64,000 nucleotides of DNA from assembly GCA_030704665.1 (NCBI GenBank), contig JAUYID010000009.1, positions 729,702 to 793,701 on the forward strand, written 5' to 3'. The translations under genes and the position numbers were made by a program. The DNA comes from a bacterium (GTDB lineage: Bacteria; Patescibacteriota; Microgenomatia; Woykebacterales; RBG-16-39-9b). A model generated the notes under the pieces. That model did no database searches. It saw only the letters and a list, made by a program, of their open reading frames with translations, and was not told the origin of the DNA. Shown here in pieces: positions 34,140-43,498 of the stretch; positions within the stretch are counted from its first letter, which is position 1, and each line of letters begins with the position of its first letter.

Positions 34140-34724
34140 TTACGGACTTACTGTGTTTGTTCCACCACTATTGGCAACACCAACTGAAGTGGTCGCTCCA
34201 CCAGTCTCAACTGTACCACTACCTGTGTTCTTGTTCGCCTTGTTCTTGCCAGTTTTGGCTTTGACTTTGGCTTTGTTTTTCACCTTGAGATTGTTGCTCT
34301 GCCCTACCGTGTTAGTTTTTGTACTGCTGGCAGTTGTGGTGTTGACGGAACCTGCTCCAGTAGTCTCATTTGTGGCCGCATTGTTTACGTCACACTCGCA
34401 CGTGCAACCGTTGCTAGCTGTATTTGAACTTCCGGAATTGACGATCGAAACAGTTGCGCTGGCATCCCCAGTCGTCACCGAACCATCACCAGTGTTCTGG
34501 CTGGCGCTATTACCACCAGTGTTAGCGTTAACACTAATATCGTTGTTGATATCGACAACGTTGCTCTGCCCAATGACAGAAGAACAAACGCTTGTAGCGA
34601 TTGCAGTGTTGACTGATCCAGCACCGGTGTTTGAGTTGCTAGCGGTGTTGTCAGCCAAGGCGGGCACTACTGCTAGAGCAACTCCGGCTAAACCCAAGCC
34701 AGGAATTGTGAAAAGTCTTTTCAT
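34140..34724 (-). CDS. secreted N/T/G/S-rich repeat protein
   Basis: Signal peptide MKRLFTIPGLGLAGVALAVVPALADNTASNSNTG, with loose similarity to the SipW-cognate signal of the 40535 gene. Repeated N-T-G-x-G-S-V motifs. Confidence 0.5.
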   Translation of the reverse strand: MKRLFTIPGLGLAGVALAVVPALADNTASNSNTGAGSVNTAIATSVCSSVIGQSNVVDINNDISVNANTGGNSASQNTGDGSVTTGDASATVSIVNSGSSNTASNGCTCECDVNNAATNETTGAGSVNTTTASSTKTNTVGQSNNLKVKNKAKVKAKTGKNKANKNTGSGTVETGGATTSVGVANSGGTNTVSP

Positions 34725-34983
34725 TTATTTCTCACCTCCTTTCATCTTCTTAAACTGTAAATTGACAACAAAAAACCAACCCCCAAAAAACGGAAGTTGG
34801 TCGCATCTTTTTTTGCTTTTTGGCTGAGACAGTTTTCATGGCAGTATCCAAAAGCTTTCAGTACAAGCACTTTTGCTCTGAGCCTCCGTTGGCGGTCGGC
34901 TCACGTTTTCATTTTATTTGAAGGCAGAAAAAAGAGGCAGAAAGAACGGGTTTTATTTTAGAGAGAGGCCACTGTAGTGTCAA
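34725..34983 (-). promoter_or_regulatory. promoter (TTGACA-17-TAAAAT) plus a ~220-nt conserved 5' leader with attenuator hairpin (copy A)
   Basis: -35 at 34978-34983 and -10 at 34955-34960 (minus strand). Leader blocks AGCCGACCGCCAA, UGCCAUGA and ACCAAC-loop-GUUGGU+U6, plus 19 nt spanning RBS to start, are shared with 41075-41326. Confidence 0.45.
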
Positions 34984-39361: not shown

Positions 39362-40507
39362 TCAGAACACCTCACAATTTTGGTTGTTTTCTCCGTTCAA
39401 GCAGGTGTCTGTTTGTGCTCCACCATCGTTTTTATCTGAACCATTCCCTGCATCAAGAAAATCCTCCCCAGAACCTCCGGAAAGCCCGTCGCTACCTGGT
39501 CCACCAAACAATTTATCGTTGCCACTGCTGCCATTTAGACTATCGGAGCCTTCGGCACCAAACAATTCATCCGCACCAGAGCCCGCTTGCAGCGAATCAC
39601 TGTCCTGACCACCAAGGAGAATGTCCTGACCGGGCCCACCTTTCAACTTATCACCGCCGTCTCCACCAACAAGGCAATCGTTACCACCTTTACCCTCAAT
39701 AAGATCTCCCCCACCAAAACCAAAAATCAAGTCGTTGCCGGCAGTTCCGATCAGCCTATCGGAGGCCTCAGTTCCCAAAATAGGCTCTCCGGAAAACTCA
39801 ATATCACTACATTCTAAAGGAGCACTCGAAATTTCACCAGTTGAAAGTCGATTACTCTCTAAAATTACACTACTTTTGAAGAGACTAAAGGCAGGAACAG
39901 CAAAGAGCAAAAAAATAAGTACAAGAGCCGGCGCAGTTAAAACTCTGGTATTTAGTTTCTCCTTTTTCTTTTTTTTCATTCTCTTCATTTCCTCGGCAAT
40001 AACCAAAAATTCATGGAGAATAACAAAACTAGCTGGAATGATTACAAGAATAAATAGCCCGGGGAAGCTGCCAAGAAAGGCAGCCAACACTCCCAAAAGG
40101 GGAGCTGAAAAAACGACTTTTCCAAAAATATTTCTGTCTCGGATCAGTGTCGAATCTGGGCCTTGATTAGCATCTCCCTTGGTTTGATAATAAGTGATTC
40201 CATCTTTCTCAACTATCTTGTTAATTCTGTGAGTAATTAAACTCTGCGTTCCTGCCGACTGAAAGCTGACGACTTCCCCTGTTTCATAGTTTTTGTTTTT
40301 ATCACTGAAAATACTTTTTTCTGGAAAAACAACCAAAAGTGAATTTATCGGAAGGTTTGGACTCATACTTCCTGTTTTTACCACCAACAATCGAACCCAG
40401 TTTAAAGCAGAGAGGGTAAGTACCAGGGTGATGGTAAAAATAAAAACTATGAAAACTGAGTTAAAGGCTTTTACAATCATAAACTCTTTACCCGGCTGGT
40501 TCCGCAA
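39362..40507 (-). CDS. SipW-type (ER/archaeal-type) signal peptidase I fused to C-terminal RTX repeats
   Basis: Three S26 boxes: nucleophile VKTGSMSPNLPINSLLVV, His box LITHRI, and TKGDANQGPD. Three TM helices. About 10 GGxGxDxLx nonapeptides (GTAGNDLIFGFGGGDLIEGKGGNDCLVGGDGGDKL...). Confidence 0.7.
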   Translation of the reverse strand: MRNQPGKEFMIVKAFNSVFIVFIFTITLVLTLSALNWVRLLVVKTGSMSPNLPINSLLVVFPEKSIFSDKNKNYETGEVVSFQSAGTQSLITHRINKIVEKDGITYYQTKGDANQGPDSTLIRDRNIFGKVVFSAPLLGVLAAFLGSFPGLFILVIIPASFVILHEFLVIAEEMKRMKKKKKEKLNTRVLTAPALVLIFLLFAVPAFSLFKSSVILESNRLSTGEISSAPLECSDIEFSGEPILGTEASDRLIGTAGNDLIFGFGGGDLIEGKGGNDCLVGGDGGDKLKGGPGQDILLGGQDSDSLQAGSGADELFGAEGSDSLNGSSGNDKLFGGPGSDGLSGGSGEDFLDAGNGSDKNDGGAQTDTCLNGENNQNCEVF

Positions 40508-40534: not shown

Positions 40535-41074
40535 TTAAGGTACGACTTGGGTTCCAGTAAAGACTACATCATACTGAATACTCTTGTTGGAGGCACTGTT
40601 TGTCGCTGAACCACTGAGGGTTTGTTTGATGTTGCATCCGACTTCTGCGTCAGGAGCAATAGTTACAATAGTTGTCCCAGGAAAAGGGGCGTCCAAAGTC
40701 CCACTCACTACCCCGCTACCACAATCTAGTGCAACTGTTACCAGACTTGGATCAAGGGCACCCGAGTCGATAGAGGTTGCGGCAGTGATATCAAGACTAA
40801 TCGCACTGTCACTGTTGTTTTTCAGACAAAATGGTAATACCTCTTCCTGCCCAGGGGCCAAATCGTCTGAATCAATCCCCGGAGTTGAGCTTGCAAAACT
40901 ACCACACGCTGAACCAGTCCATTCCGCTATTTGCAGATCGGCATCACCAGTACTTAAGGTGTTGTTGGATAGAGTCGCAGTGTCAGTAAAAACAGCTAAA
41001 GTGATTCCCACAACCGCAGCTAGGGTTGCGGCAATGGTGAGAAAACCAAAAGCTACTCTTTTGTTTATTGCCAT
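40535..41074 (-). CDS. TasA/camelysin-like protein with SipW-cognate signal peptide
   Basis: N-terminus MAINKRVAFGFLTIAATLAAVVGITLAVFTDTATLSNNTLSTG matches the SipW-cognate signal class (A-x-F-T/N-D motif). 179 aa. Confidence 0.6.
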   Translation of the reverse strand: MAINKRVAFGFLTIAATLAAVVGITLAVFTDTATLSNNTLSTGDADLQIAEWTGSACGSFASSTPGIDSDDLAPGQEEVLPFCLKNNSDSAISLDITAATSIDSGALDPSLVTVALDCGSGVVSGTLDAPFPGTTIVTIAPDAEVGCNIKQTLSGSATNSASNKSIQYDVVFTGTQVVP

Positions 41075-41326
41075 TTATTTCTCACCTCCTCTCCCCTTCA
41101 ACCAATTTCTTTTTGAAAATTGGCATAAAAAAACCAACTGTCCTGTTTCGGCTCGTTGGTTACTATTTTTTTGTAAGCAGATATTTTGGACAGTCATGGC
41201 AGCAAACTTTTGGCAGGATTTTTAATATAGGCCTCTCCTTGGCGGTCGGCTGTACAGTTTTTACTTAACGATCAGGAAATTTTGAATGCGAAGTGAGTAT
41301 AAACTATCGCAAAGTGGAGGTGTCAA
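41075..41326 (-). promoter_or_regulatory. promoter (TTGACA-17-TTTATA) plus conserved 5' leader with attenuator hairpin (copy B)
   Basis: -35 at 41321-41326 and -10 at 41298-41303 (minus strand). GGCGGTCGGCT lies exactly 177 nt from the start codon in both copies. Confidence 0.45.
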
Positions 41327-41382: not shown

Positions 41383-42465
41383 CTAGGTGCACGTCTTACC
41401 GTGGGCAGCTGTTACAAAACCTTGGTCAGTGGAGTTTATGTAGCCATCAAGGTTCAAGTCATATCTCTTTCTGTAATAATTCCCGGAGGAGCTTTTAGTT
41501 CCCTTGTAGTCTGCTCCAATGTATTTAGCCAAAAGTAACTGATCAGCAGAGGTTACTTTTTTGTCACTATTGAAGTCTATTGGCCAAGCGCTTGATCCAC
41601 AGGCTGCTGTCGGACTGGTCCCCATATGTGACTCCGCCGCATCTCCAAAGCTATCTCCATCACTATCTTTTTTGAGAGTCCTGGCTTCTTTAGTTACTGA
41701 TGTATTGTTATTACTTGTATCGTCCACACCTACTCTAATTTGATACTTCGAACTATCCCGTAAATTCGACCACGTTTGAGTTGTCTCTAATGAAAGGGGC
41801 GAACAGATCCCCGAACTTCCTCCTCCGGTTGGACCATTAGGAGGATTGTAGTCCTCATAATACTTTGGATCAACAAGGTCAGAAGAAGAGGTACAAACAT
41901 AATAACCAGAAATCCCAACGTTATCTGTCGCCGACCATTTCCAAGTAATCGAGTTGGTAGTGATATTTGTGGCGTTTACCGTCAGAACAGGTGGGGTAGT
42001 ATCCTTTGAAAGAACCGTAAAAGCCTGGGTTGAAGCTGTGGTACATCCCCCAGTTACACAAGAAACGGTCCAATAGTAGGTGGTGCCAACTGTCAATTGG
42101 CTTGGTGGGGTTCCGTAGCTTGCACTACTCCAACCACCAAAGTTTGTCGAGTTGACTCCGCTGCTACCATACACATCCTTGTACCAAGATCCTGAGTAAA
42201 AATTCCCATTATAGGCCCGGAGATAAACTCGATATTTTGTGGTGTAGCAGTAACAGTTCCAACTAAAGGTTGGCGTAGTACTGTAGGTACTGTAGGCTGG
42301 AGTTAAGCTTGAAGGTTTTCCAGTTGCGGCCTGAGGAGTAAGTGAGCGCACACCATAAACTGCAAAAACAGTAATCGGTATTGAAATGAGAATAATGAGA
42401 GAGGCAAGAATTCCTAGGTTTATGCTTTTGAGAGTAAATTTGTGATCTTCTTGTTCATCGTTCAT
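41383..42465 (-). CDS. secreted protein with fibronectin-III-like region and C-terminal dockerin-like repeats
   Basis: N-terminal TM/signal. Dockerin-type D-x-N-x-D-G motifs (DLNLDGYINSTD; DFNSDKKVTSADQLLL). Confidence 0.55.
   Translation of the reverse strand: MNDEQEDHKFTLKSINLGILASLIILISIPITVFAVYGVRSLTPQAATGKPSSLTPAYSTYSTTPTFSWNCYCYTTKYRVYLRAYNGNFYSGSWYKDVYGSSGVNSTNFGGWSSASYGTPPSQLTVGTTYYWTVSCVTGGCTTASTQAFTVLSKDTTPPVLTVNATNITTNSITWKWSATDNVGISGYYVCTSSSDLVDPKYYEDYNPPNGPTGGGSSGICSPLSLETTQTWSNLRDSSKYQIRVGVDDTSNNNTSVTKEARTLKKDSDGDSFGDAAESHMGTSPTAACGSSAWPIDFNSDKKVTSADQLLLAKYIGADYKGTKSSSGNYYRKRYDLNLDGYINSTDQGFVTAAHGKTCT
42242..42374. repeat. 133-bp exact direct repeat, copy 1 (inside the 41383 gene)
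   Basis: Identical to 43257-43389. Flanking sequence continues at lower identity. Confidence 0.8.
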
Positions 42466-42472
42466 TTTAAAT

Positions 42473-43498
42473 TCACTGGCATCTCTGTCCTACATACTTC
42501 GCAAGAGCTTCCGAATCTTTCGAGTTCAAAACATTATCACCTGGGTAAAATTCATATCTTCTTATATTCGCTGGTGGGCTAGCTATTGCCTTGTATAACA
42601 AAAACTGGTCTGCTGAGGAAACAACTTTGTCCCCATTCAAGTCTGGTGGCCAAGCAGAAGCTCCACCACATTTTAAGTTAGGATTGGTACCCATCCAGAT
42701 TTCAACCCCGTTTAACCACCCATCACCATCACTGTCTATATCATCTGTCCTAATACCTCCTGACCTGCCACCCACATTTCCTGCTGCATCATAAGCTCTG
42801 ATATTGTAGTAATAAAGTGTATTCGGAGTAAGGTTGTTGTAGGTATATGACGTTATACCTGACCCCAAAGGAATAATCCCTGTGGAAGTCTCAGTAGTAA
42901 CTCCTAAAGAGATGTCTTGGCGAACAACTCCAACATTATCATAAGTACTCCAGTAAAAAGTAAGTGAAGTTGGCTTGGTCAGGGTTGTACCCATAGAAAC
43001 TTCAGGTGGCGAGGTGTCTTTCGTAAGGACGGTGAATGCCTGAGTTGCTGAAGTCTTACACCCACCAGTCACACAACTAACCGCCCAATAATAAGTTTTT
43101 CCAGCGGTGAGAGAAGCTGGGGCCGATTTGTAATTGTTGTTGATCCAGCCGCCAAAGATAGTAGAATTTTTTCCGCTCGTCCCAAAAACTTCTTTGTACC
43201 AAGACCCAGCATAGAAATTGCCATCTCCTTCACGAAGATAAACTCTATATTTGGTCGTGTAGCAGTAACAGTTCCAACTAAAGGTTGGCGTAGTACTGTA
43301 GGTACTGTAGGCTGGAGTTAAGCTTGAAGGTTTTCCAGTTGCGGCCTGAGGAGTAAGTGAGCGCACACCATAAACTGCAAAAACAGTAACGGGAATGGCG
43401 GCAAAGATAACCAAAACACCAACCAAAGCCAGCTTCGTTGATCGAGTCTGGTGCTCAAATCTTTCCAACAAACGGTTGATTGTTTTGGCAGGATTCAT
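42473..43498 (-). CDS. paralog of the 41383 gene (FN3-like plus dockerin-like)
   Basis: N-terminal approx 150 aa are near-identical to the neighbour (VFAVYGVRSLTPQAATGKPSSLTPAYSTYSTTPTFSWNCYCYTTKY). DLNGDKVVSSADQFLL dockerin motif. Confidence 0.55.
   Translation of the reverse strand: MNPAKTINRLLERFEHQTRSTKLALVGVLVIFAAIPVTVFAVYGVRSLTPQAATGKPSSLTPAYSTYSTTPTFSWNCYCYTTKYRVYLREGDGNFYAGSWYKEVFGTSGKNSTIFGGWINNNYKSAPASLTAGKTYYWAVSCVTGGCKTSATQAFTVLTKDTSPPEVSMGTTLTKPTSLTFYWSTYDNVGVVRQDISLGVTTETSTGIIPLGSGITSYTYNNLTPNTLYYYNIRAYDAAGNVGGRSGGIRTDDIDSDGDGWLNGVEIWMGTNPNLKCGGASAWPPDLNGDKVVSSADQFLLYKAIASPPANIRRYEFYPGDNVLNSKDSEALAKYVGQRCQ
43257..43389. repeat. 133-bp exact direct repeat, copy 2 (inside the 42473 gene)
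   Basis: Identical to 42242-42374. Confidence 0.8.

Follow-up and report, generated by a model that had tools for sequence, protein, structure and literature searches.

Introduction

This report concerns a promoter and 5′ leader at positions 34725-34983, on the minus strand of a 64-kb stretch of bacterial DNA (64,000 nucleotides, hereafter the window), and a small RNA hairpin within that leader. The leader (copy A) precedes gene A, and a related leader on the same strand (copy B) precedes gene B. Leaders that attenuate transcription are a known kind of regulator. The ribonucleic antiterminator (RAT) of the BglG, SacY and LicT systems of Bacillus and E. coli is a short conserved leader hairpin that shares its 3′ part with the 5′ arm of an intrinsic terminator. 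The terminator is far more stable, and read-through needs a protein that holds the hairpin, which is the logic that we propose below for the canonical class of our leaders. RAT is about 29 nt long with two asymmetric internal loops, whereas the motif found here is 19 nt long with a GA/A internal loop and a 3′ strand like a Shine-Dalgarno (SD) sequence. RAT is found on sugar catabolism genes, in contrast to the surface-protein genes served by the motif, and the terminator in the window does not overlap the hairpin. By eye, the RAT sequence is unrelated to the motif, and the two have nothing but their operating logic in common. The loci examined showed no PRD-type protein, although no genome-wide search for PRD proteins was made.

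Other described leaders share different features with this locus. The four-segment arrangement of the trp, his, pheA and pyrBI leaders recalls copy A, and several relatives of copy A have upstream open reading frames (uORFs) that end at or in the terminator. In contrast to trp/his-type leaders, leaders with the motif lack runs of regulatory codons, the uORFs in the window have no SD sequence and the uORF start is not conserved. The Rfam Phe_leader model scored 25.5 bits compared to a gathering score of 55. The STAB-SD element in the 5′ untranslated region of B. thuringiensis cryIIIA is also a GGAGG that lies a long way 5′ of the start codon, and the gene it precedes is very highly expressed and encodes a secreted protein. 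The GGAGG of our motif could likewise bind 16S rRNA, at its 3′ end, with no initiation of translation, but it lies inside an invariant hairpin and usually forms the stem of a terminator. Finally, the matrix genes of B. subtilis, which are controlled by SinR/SlrR at tapA-sipW-tasA and by the eps-associated RNA (EAR) in eps, resemble our loci in having TasA-like and SipW genes, and EAR is an RNA that controls termination in a matrix operon. SinR, however, acts on DNA, and EAR is a larger RNA that works by processive antitermination. No Rfam match to EAR was found in the window leaders. The leader described here is thus of a known kind, while its hairpin family has no Rfam or literature description and the window copies are atypical or degenerate members of that family.

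A hairpin family upstream of surface-protein genes

The hairpin in copy A was found to belong to a family with the consensus GCYGACCGC-NNN-CGGAGGC. Related loci (L numbers) were fetched by homology to protein A, without using the DNA motif. The best relatives were Candidatus Woykebacteria and other Microgenomates-type bacteria of the Candidate Phyla Radiation (CPR), and homologous genes of Woykebacteria, Daviesbacteria, Levyibacteria and others are preceded by the core of the motif. In these protein-anchored loci, each exact core match (14/14) precedes, in the same orientation, an NTG-repeat family (A-family) gene or a TasA-like gene. Across lineages whose proteins share only 35-50% identity, 16 positions of the motif were invariant.

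Metagenome contigs were scanned with a 20-nt version of the motif. This gave at least 120 matches, compared to about 10 expected by chance according to our own estimate from the information content of the pattern and an assumed collection size. In all, 124 unique instances were collected from Microgenomates-type CPR genomes and metagenomes, and these make up the family set. The downstream gene was readable in 107 listed instances: 88 were A-family genes (mostly ~410-aa paralogues), 2 were TasA-like and 17 were other, and most of these 17 encode signal-peptide repeat proteins too. Signal-peptide repeat or TasA-like proteins are encoded directly after at least 90 of the 107. A motif scan of viral contigs, which served as a negative control, gave only chance matches by all tests applied. 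A genome scan with an alignment of the TasA-like protein found no relatives.

Gene A is a member of the A-family preceded by the motif. The copy A hairpin scored 33.3 bits (E 2.6e-7) with the covariance model described below and was the sole match in the window at E < 0.1. Both window copies also share the position of the family, in the 5′ leader and on the same strand as the NTG-repeat gene (A) or the TasA-like gene (B) downstream, and the promoter of copy A lies upstream of the motif as it does in the family.

A first-pass annotation of the window, made from its letters alone, had recognised no known riboswitch in the two leaders, and our searches agree. Rfam 15 gave no family at the gathering threshold for the leaders and only one tRNA for the window as a whole, and at E ≤ 10 both leaders and nine related loci gave only sub-threshold chance matches. 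Full-text literature searches for the motif sequence, CPR RNA motifs and DUF2292 found no description of the motif. Neither these lineages nor DUF2292 are mentioned in Weinberg 2017.

The regulated proteins carry the repeat Q.N...V......ANTGGNxANxNTGxGxVxTGxA with a central CxC, which recalls curli-type amyloid repeats, and the family has no Pfam, NCBIfam or PDB match. The ~410-aa paralogues (L260, L023) end in an LPELD-like segment and a hydrophobic tail, and a sortase gene is nearby in 37 loci. Many contigs with typical CPR genes (L012, L013, L016-L018, L020, L023-L026) are titled 'uncultured Gammaproteobacteria bacterium' (TPA_asm bins), which is probably a labelling artefact of the deposited metagenome-assembled genomes.

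Structure and covariation of the hairpin

The motif folds into an outer stem of G0-C18, C1-G17 and Y2.G16 (usually extended by 1-4 pairs), a GA/A internal loop, a CCG/CGG inner stem and a 4-nt loop. Since the metagenome set had a fixed core, a covariance model (R1) was built from 76 members and then used to find divergent members, which were present in related loci beyond the window. In these, compensatory changes were seen in the outer stem. G0-C18 was replaced by A-U in L009, L010, L268 and L274-L276 and by U-A in L026, L023, L195 and L172, while Y2.G16 was replaced by A-U or U-A. At alignment pair 9-27, G-C changed to U-A or A-U, and at pair 11-25, U.G changed to C-G, A-U or U-A. The inner stem had a single compensatory change, C-G to U-A (L220). 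Across 88 distinct sequences, 83.5% of cells were paired, compared to 27-46% with slid partners, and 0 of 500 shuffles reached the observed covariation score. At the level of the aligned sequences, this shows a conserved RNA hairpin with covariation in its outer stem.

The loop followed the terminator that is described in the next section. In the protein-anchored loci, it was AAA in 8/8 cases with an overlapping terminator, where it pairs with the U-tract, and was not AAA in 4/4 cases without one. At L273, the loop is CAAC, and the terminator has the matching ...CCUCCGGUUUUU in its 3′ arm. The three variable positions appear to behave as a loop that has been co-opted by the terminator.

Overlap of the hairpin with terminators

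An intrinsic terminator with a 5′ arm that starts within the SD-like 3′ half of the motif accompanies 108 of the 124 listed instances. In class I (77 listed cases), the arm starts from C12 of CGGAGGC (AAACGGAGGC...GCCUCCGUUUUUU), and in class II (23 listed cases), it starts from G16 (GGCAUCC...GGAUGCCUUUUUU). As a control, only 1 of 118 chance matches to a 14-nt core in viral contigs had an overlapping terminator. The remaining 16 instances include class I units with an interrupted U-run, contig ends and about 3 chance matches in coding sequence. Energies were about -8.5 kcal/mol for the hairpin vs. about -29.9 kcal/mol for the terminator.

Promoter-like sites scoring at least 10/12 preceded the motif in 32 of 119 cases, compared to 2 of 103 between the terminator and the open reading frame (ORF). 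In canonical loci, the motif is usually 12-30 bp past the -10 element. Since strong promoters are rare between the terminator and the ORF, genes led by the motif depend on read-through.

The window copies belong to a minority 'distal terminator' group together with L008 and L018. Eight of the 9 listed leaders without an overlapping terminator have an AUG 3-5 nt after GGAGG, and the ninth, L021, has AAG. Where the terminator overlaps the motif, only 4 of 108 leaders have an ATG in the 10 nt that follow the motif. In L026, L023, L172 and L195, the AUG opens a uORF of 11-18 codons that stops at or inside the 5′ arm or loop of the distal terminator, and a 28-codon uORF in L199 runs through the terminator. 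The uORF start of L026 (AUGAAAACUGUCC) is the same block as in the window. In L151, the motif has GGAAG, which is the SD sequence of the TasA-like gene itself. In all these layouts, the SD-like 3′ strand belongs to an expression platform, and the 5′ strand GCYGACCG competes with it.

Further elements recur in class I leaders and in their relatives. In class I units, CUGCCUCC is the 3′ arm of the terminator, and ...CCGUUUUCGUUU-loop-AAACGAAAACGG offers the U-tract a new pairing once read-through has taken place. A U-tract followed by GUKG(N)C and a complementary A-run (GGUUUUUUCGUGGNCAAAAAU) is found in class I, in L001, L003 and L268-L272, and in the window at 34775-34755 and 41133-41105. A GRAAGUGY box comes next in many leaders of ~410-aa genes. 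A different conserved hairpin with a AUUAGGAC loop (GGAAUU-AGGACA-AAUUCC) lies directly after the promoter at L009 (~6770), L010 (~6720) and L012 (~6770), is followed by AUGAAYUGCCCA and precedes ~200-aa A-family genes. This gene family may thus have two kinds of leader motif.

The two leaders of the window

Copy A consists of the following features.

34955-34983, minus strand: promoter A, with a -35 element TTGACA (34983-34978), a 17-nt spacer and a -10 element TAAAAT (34960-34955); 11/12 in the promoter scan
34921-34948, minus strand: 5′ end of leader A, CU-rich, with two CUGCC boxes (34940-34936, 34927-34923), complementary to the region of its own ribosome-binding site (RBS)
34880-34902, minus strand: hairpin motif, GAGCC-GA-CCG-CCAA-CGG-A-GGCUC, with its core from G0 at 34900 to C18 at 34882 and an SD-like 3′ half CGGAGGC
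34828-34845, minus strand: ACUGCC-AUG-AAAACUGUC block, common to copy B and leaders L026, L023 and L021
34770-34802, minus strand: terminator-like attenuator, GACCAACUUCCG / UGGGGGUUGGUU followed by a U-run; 12 pairs in the terminator scan
34722-34740, minus strand: SD sequence AGGAGGUGA and start codon of gene A; 19 nt the same as in copy B
34140-34724, minus strand: gene A, a 194-aa signal-peptide protein with two NTGGNxAxxNTG...TG repeats around CxC

Copy B and the gene that follows gene B are laid out as follows.

41296-41326, minus strand: promoter B, TTGACA (41326-41321), N19 and TATACT (41301-41296), read from the sequence and not listed by the promoter scan
41231-41251, minus strand: degenerate hairpin AGCCGACCGCCAAGGAGAGGC, with its first 13 nt as in copy A and its 3′ half changed (GGAGAGGC)
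41188-41216, minus strand: region of the 5′ arm of the attenuator, with two CUGCC boxes (41216-41212, 41202-41198), an AUG (41197-41195) and ACUGUCC
41127-41160, minus strand: 3′ part of the attenuator, ACCAAC...GGACAGUUGG followed by U7 (41133-41127), not listed by the terminator scan
41072-41090, minus strand: SD sequence and start codon of gene B; 19 nt the same as in copy A
40535-41074, minus strand: gene B, a TasA/camelysin-like protein (Peptidase_M73) with a SipW-type signal peptide
39362-40507, minus strand: SipW-type signal peptidase fused to C-terminal RTX calcium-binding repeats, directly downstream of gene B

The first-pass annotation had proposed that the two leaders share collinear blocks at identical distances from the start codon, and every block it listed was found on the minus strand in the same order. 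Block 1 (AGCCGACCGCCAA[C/G]G) at 34901-34887 and 41251-41237 has its sole two exact matches in the 64 kb at these sites, and 0 of 100 shuffles gave as many total matches. It starts 177 nt before the start codon in both copies, with an A-B offset of 6350. The same offset separates the two copies of the 19-nt AGGAGGTGAGAAATAAATG over the RBS and start codon (34740-34722 and 41090-41072), for which exactly 2 matches were found compared to 0.02 expected. The offset is 6358 for the TGCCATGA..ACTGTC block (34842-34828 in A and 41200-41189 in B) and the GTTGGTTTTTT block; therefore, two 8-nt indels cancel out between the copies, and the distances agree at the outer blocks while the inner ones are shifted by 8 nt. 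The similarity stops at ATG, and the coding regions are unrelated, as had been stated: the gene A protein has no Pfam match and no meaningful PDB match, and gene B is Peptidase_M73/TasA-like. Of the two proteins proposed as SipW substrates, that of gene B has a SipW-type signal peptide, and that of gene A is a putative substrate at most. The first 13 nt of the motif are the same in A and B, including the unusual CCAA loop, which indicates that the two leaders share a duplication within the genome.

A near-consensus sigma70 promoter had been claimed for both leaders. This holds for copy A, while the spacing in copy B is not near-consensus and its promoter was missed by the scan. The TTGACA-N19-TATACT arrangement is nevertheless kept at the orthologous loci L268 (~3800), L269 (~3470) and L271 (~630), and promoters of TasA-like genes have it with TAAG/ATAG ahead. 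The N19 spacing is unusual for sigma-70 and suggests a shifted -35 element or another sigma factor. The claimed ACCAAC/GUUGGU terminator with its U-run likewise stood in copy A, where the 12-pair stem and U-run scored as terminator-like, and fell in copy B, where the loop between ACCAAC and GTTGGT is 16 nt long and the element is no canonical terminator. A better stem in copy B pairs GCCA..ACUGUCC (41200-41188) with GGACAGU.UGGU (41143-41133), followed by U7.

The copy A hairpin had a fold of -13.6 kcal/mol and lies ~47 nt from the predicted transcription start site. Its GGAGG (34887-34883) is 159 nt ahead of the start codon of gene A, and no start codon is nearby. Terminator A forms in predicted co-transcriptional folds. 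The motif is also fully complementary to the terminator region (GAGCCGACCGCCAACGGAGG vs. CUUCCGUUUUUUGGGGGUUGGUU). The duplex between them had an energy of -27.5 kcal/mol, compared to -16.5 +/- 3.1 for shuffles, of which 0.4% reached this value. An alternative fold with this pairing had -39.0 kcal/mol, compared to -41.1 for the minimum free energy (MFE) fold with the hairpin and terminator. The long-range pairing was not significant in copy B (p ~0.12) or L008 (p ~0.40), and since only copy A showed it, it is no general rule for leaders with distal terminators. The segment CUUCCGUUUUUU of copy A looks like a class I terminator 3′ arm that was parted from its partner by an insertion.

Both window leaders open with a stretch complementary to their own RBS. 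In the MFE fold, the 5′ end of leader A pairs with 34755-34725 (duplex -20.3 kcal/mol), and from this model we infer a possible function for it. CUGCC/UGCCC(A) boxes recur in the window (34940-34923, 34845-34840 and 41216-41198) and in L008, L018, L268, L269, L271, L020 and L025. They are often in the loop of a small hairpin (UUCUC-UGCCC-GAGAA) and also occur without the GACCGC hairpin.

Neighbouring genes showed other similarities. The SipW-RTX gene is also found 3′ of the TasA-like gene in L268, L269, L275 and L276. In L003 (7560-8003 and 9300-9640), an A-like and a TasA-like gene share blocks close to the promoter and RBS (TAAnTTGACAGTCAATTT; CGTTCAAGTTGAAAGGAGGTGAAAAYAAAT) that are absent from the window, and their sequence suggests homogenisation of leaders within a genome. 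A 253-nt direct repeat with 86% identity (42129-42381 and 43144-43396 of the window) corresponds to the N-terminal parts of adjacent paralogous genes for fn3/dockerin-type secreted proteins (41383-42465 and 42473-43498).

Genes upstream of the motif

All ORFs around the motif loci were clustered, and this revealed the canonical gene order: a DUF4352-like membrane protein, a DUF2292 protein of 64-84 aa, the promoter with motif and terminator, the ~410-aa repeat protein and often a sortase. The DUF4352/DUF2292 pair is seen at L026 (437-1350), L268 (7451-8278), L273 (3066-3963), L275 and L276. A DUF2292 gene ends at most 200 nt upstream of the motif in 50 listed instances. Conversely, all 5 DUF2292 loci picked by protein similarity (5/5) had the motif 100-250 nt downstream. 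The core KEYGSVEIYIESGRVVQITERTIKKT of DUF2292 (YezD/OscA-family) is almost invariant.

By tblastn, neither a DUF4352 nor a DUF2292 gene was found in the 64-kb window. At L273, the DUF2292 protein P0117 comes with a canonical class I unit ahead of an A-family paralogue. P0117 and the gene B protein are each recorded on a 938,369-nt contig. If it is the same contig, this organism has at least three motif copies (the canonical one, A and the degenerate B).

DUF2292 had no PDB sequence match, and Foldseek against PDB gave only hits with E > 3. Its AlphaFold model is a helix with a β-hairpin at low confidence (pLDDT 63.7), and the fold comparison gave no support for RNA binding. Because of the low-confidence model and the missing structural neighbour, a role for DUF2292 is a lead and not a result.

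Discussion

Our preferred reading, to which we give a probability of roughly 0.55, is that 34725-34983 on the minus strand is a promoter and leader carrying a member of a new hairpin family, that the leader acts as a factor-dependent attenuator built from hairpin and terminator, and that the window copies are derived forms. In the family, the SD-like 3′ half serves as the 5′ arm of the terminator (~90%), as the SD sequence of a short uORF ahead of the terminator or, rarely, as the SD sequence of the gene itself. Because this half belongs to both, the hairpin and the expression platform are mutually exclusive. A trans-acting macromolecule would read the hairpin and set the balance between termination and read-through. 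Such a reader is suggested by the weakness of the hairpin compared to the terminator, together with a sequence that is nearly invariant across lineages. The leading candidate is the small DUF2292 protein encoded upstream in canonical loci, because of its adjacency, the reciprocal association and its matching invariance. An alternative reader might be a 30S subunit that binds GGAGG.

The data show the motif family, the covariation of its stem, its overlap with terminators, its link to one class of genes and the position of the promoters; from these we infer that attenuation occurs, which effector acts and in which direction control runs in the window. Copy A could follow a trp-like scheme of four segments, in which 1:2 is the hairpin, 2:3 pairs ACGGAGG with CUUCCGU and 3:4 is the terminator. 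The window copies would have been derived by duplication of the leader within the genome. The first-pass annotation had called the shared leader a conserved cis-regulatory RNA with a built-in attenuator. This is borne out in that homologous loci keep a mid-leader terminator and block 1 belongs to a large hairpin family. The conserved unit, however, is the hairpin of ~19-23 nt and not the leader of ~220 nt.

Several observations weigh against our preferred reading. The metagenome instances were retrieved with the core held fixed, and the covariation alignment was fitted to the model and comprises mutually related sequences. The CCG/CGG inner stem almost never varies, so part of the hairpin rests on invariance. 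In copy A, the 3′ half of the motif is not the 5′ arm of the terminator, unlike in 108 of 124 listed members; terminator A starts 78 nt after the motif, and since there is no overlap in the window, coupling of the hairpin and terminator in copy A is putative. As far as the sequence tells, a stabilised hairpin would not alone block terminator A, and in the four-segment scheme it would favour termination, opposite to class I. The copy B hairpin was not found by model R1 at E ≤ 10 and had a fold of only -6.1 kcal/mol. The candidacy of DUF2292 is a lead drawn from gene adjacency and conservation. Also, the motif is absent from the gene B orthologues L001, L269 and L271, the TasA-like paralogue L268 and the gene A orthologue L272. 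These leaders keep the promoter, the UGCCC/CUGCC boxes and a strong RBS, and the terminator in the middle of the leader has the end ..GGUUUUUU(c)GUKG..AAAAA. Since these orthologues have attenuator leaders without the motif, it is not required for such leaders. Their shared layout makes the attenuator-containing leader the more general feature and the hairpin a module of many, though not all, of them.

A bolder extension of our preferred reading, which we consider speculative and rather unlikely, is that the invariant hairpin is the RNA operator of a CPR-wide surface-fibre regulon that is read by DUF2292 and wired with opposite polarity in different leaders. The regulon would cover the sortase-linked ~410-aa repeat proteins, the ~200-aa repeat proteins and the TasA-like proteins. 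The hairpin would act as an antiterminator where the terminator overlaps it, and through SD sequestration or as an anti-antiterminator in leaders of the uORF or window type. If this were true, DUF2292 would gain its first function, as an RNA-binding regulator of termination or translation, and one factor could switch reciprocally between alternative surface structures.

Among the alternatives to a factor-read attenuator, leader-peptide attenuation survives best, and we regard it as unlikely. Here, a ribosome on the uORF (starting at 34839 in A and 41197 in B) would run through the terminator and prevent its formation. The copy A uORF has 29 codons (MKTVSAKK...), from the AUG at 34839-34837 through terminator A to a stop at 34752-34750. 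That of copy B has 40 codons (MTVQNICL...) and a UAA stop (41077-41075) that abuts the main AUG, so translation of gene B would be coupled to it. The two uORFs stay in the same frame across a 3-nt indel, and each continues through the terminator. In L026, L023, L172, L195 and L199, GGAGG is 3-5 nt ahead of the AUG and the uORF ends at or in the terminator, and the L026 start block is shared with the window. Neither AUG in the window, however, has an SD sequence ahead of it, and the AUG is AAG in L021 and ACG at the corresponding position in L269 while nearby nucleotides are conserved, which makes the uORF of copy A a weak case. The reading frame of CUGCC differs between leaders, and the peptides share only 3-4 residues. 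A general explanation of the AUG..CUGCC/ACUGUC blocks at the peptide level was rejected because of this varying frame and the loss of the AUG in L021 (ACG in L269).

The two leaders could also be a duplicated cassette for mRNA stability and high expression, like cryIIIA STAB-SD, in which the hairpin and U-run do no switching. The GGAGG of copy A, ~160 nt before the start with no start codon near, would suit this, as would the strong promoters, the optimal and identical RBS of A and B, the abundant secreted structural proteins encoded by such genes and the 13-nt identity with the odd CCAA loop, which indicates duplication within the genome. We still find the idea quite improbable, since a stabiliser would have no need of invariance over 16 positions across distant lineages, or of being the terminator 5′ arm in 108 of 124 listed instances, and terminators in a leader lower expression.

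The first-pass annotation had offered a riboswitch or a protein-dependent antiterminator. The evidence fits both, although the small size and invariant sequence of the motif favour a macromolecular partner. A riboswitch for a small molecule or ion would make the hairpin, possibly with its flanks, a minimal aptamer joined to terminator or SD platforms. It would account for the invariant internal-loop and stem nucleotides and for one sensor being joined to a terminator, a uORF SD sequence or a gene SD sequence. We consider it very unlikely, given ~19 conserved nt with 8-10 base pairs, no conserved junction or pseudoknot, served genes that are structural surface proteins without a metabolic theme and no Rfam riboswitch match. 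To our knowledge, a motif of ~19 nt is smaller than any validated single-hairpin aptamer.

We hold an independent 5′ small RNA (sRNA) to be just as improbable. The promoter, motif and terminator would give a trans-acting sRNA of 60-130 nt with a conserved 5′ seed, whose targets would be complementary to GCUGACCGC and whose place beside the protein gene would be a coincidence. Small RNAs typically pair a conserved 5′ segment with a terminator stem that varies, and the terminator is strong, but the motif invariably shares its strand with a gene of one superfamily that it directly precedes, strong promoters for the ORF itself are rare after the terminator and the 3′ half of the motif is the SD sequence of a uORF or gene in some leaders. 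A DNA operator, with the 19 bp as a site for a transcription factor (e.g., DUF2292) just after the promoter, is the least probable of all: although CCG-N4-CGG is palindromic and usually sits close behind the -10 element in canonical loci, the site is asymmetric outside CCG/CGG, U.G alternates with C-G, RNA pairing is maintained by compensatory changes, loop and terminator 3′ arm covary (L273) and the orientation is strictly strand-specific.

The ultra-small CPR bacteria (Patescibacteria) mostly cannot be cultured, almost nothing is known about their gene regulation and attachment to host cells is attributed to their surface structures. In these bacteria, a single RNA element of 19 nt, which occurs on well over 100 contigs and in several copies per genome, delineates a regulon that comprises the major secreted repeat, TasA-like and sortase-associated proteins. 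The covariance model can be used to annotate these leaders in metagenomes, and the mechanism can be tested cheaply in vitro with a template, RNA polymerase and the DUF2292 protein or 30S subunits. For the DUF2292 family, the finding offers a lead on function that can be tested, and for the genes of this regulon it predicts conditional premature termination.

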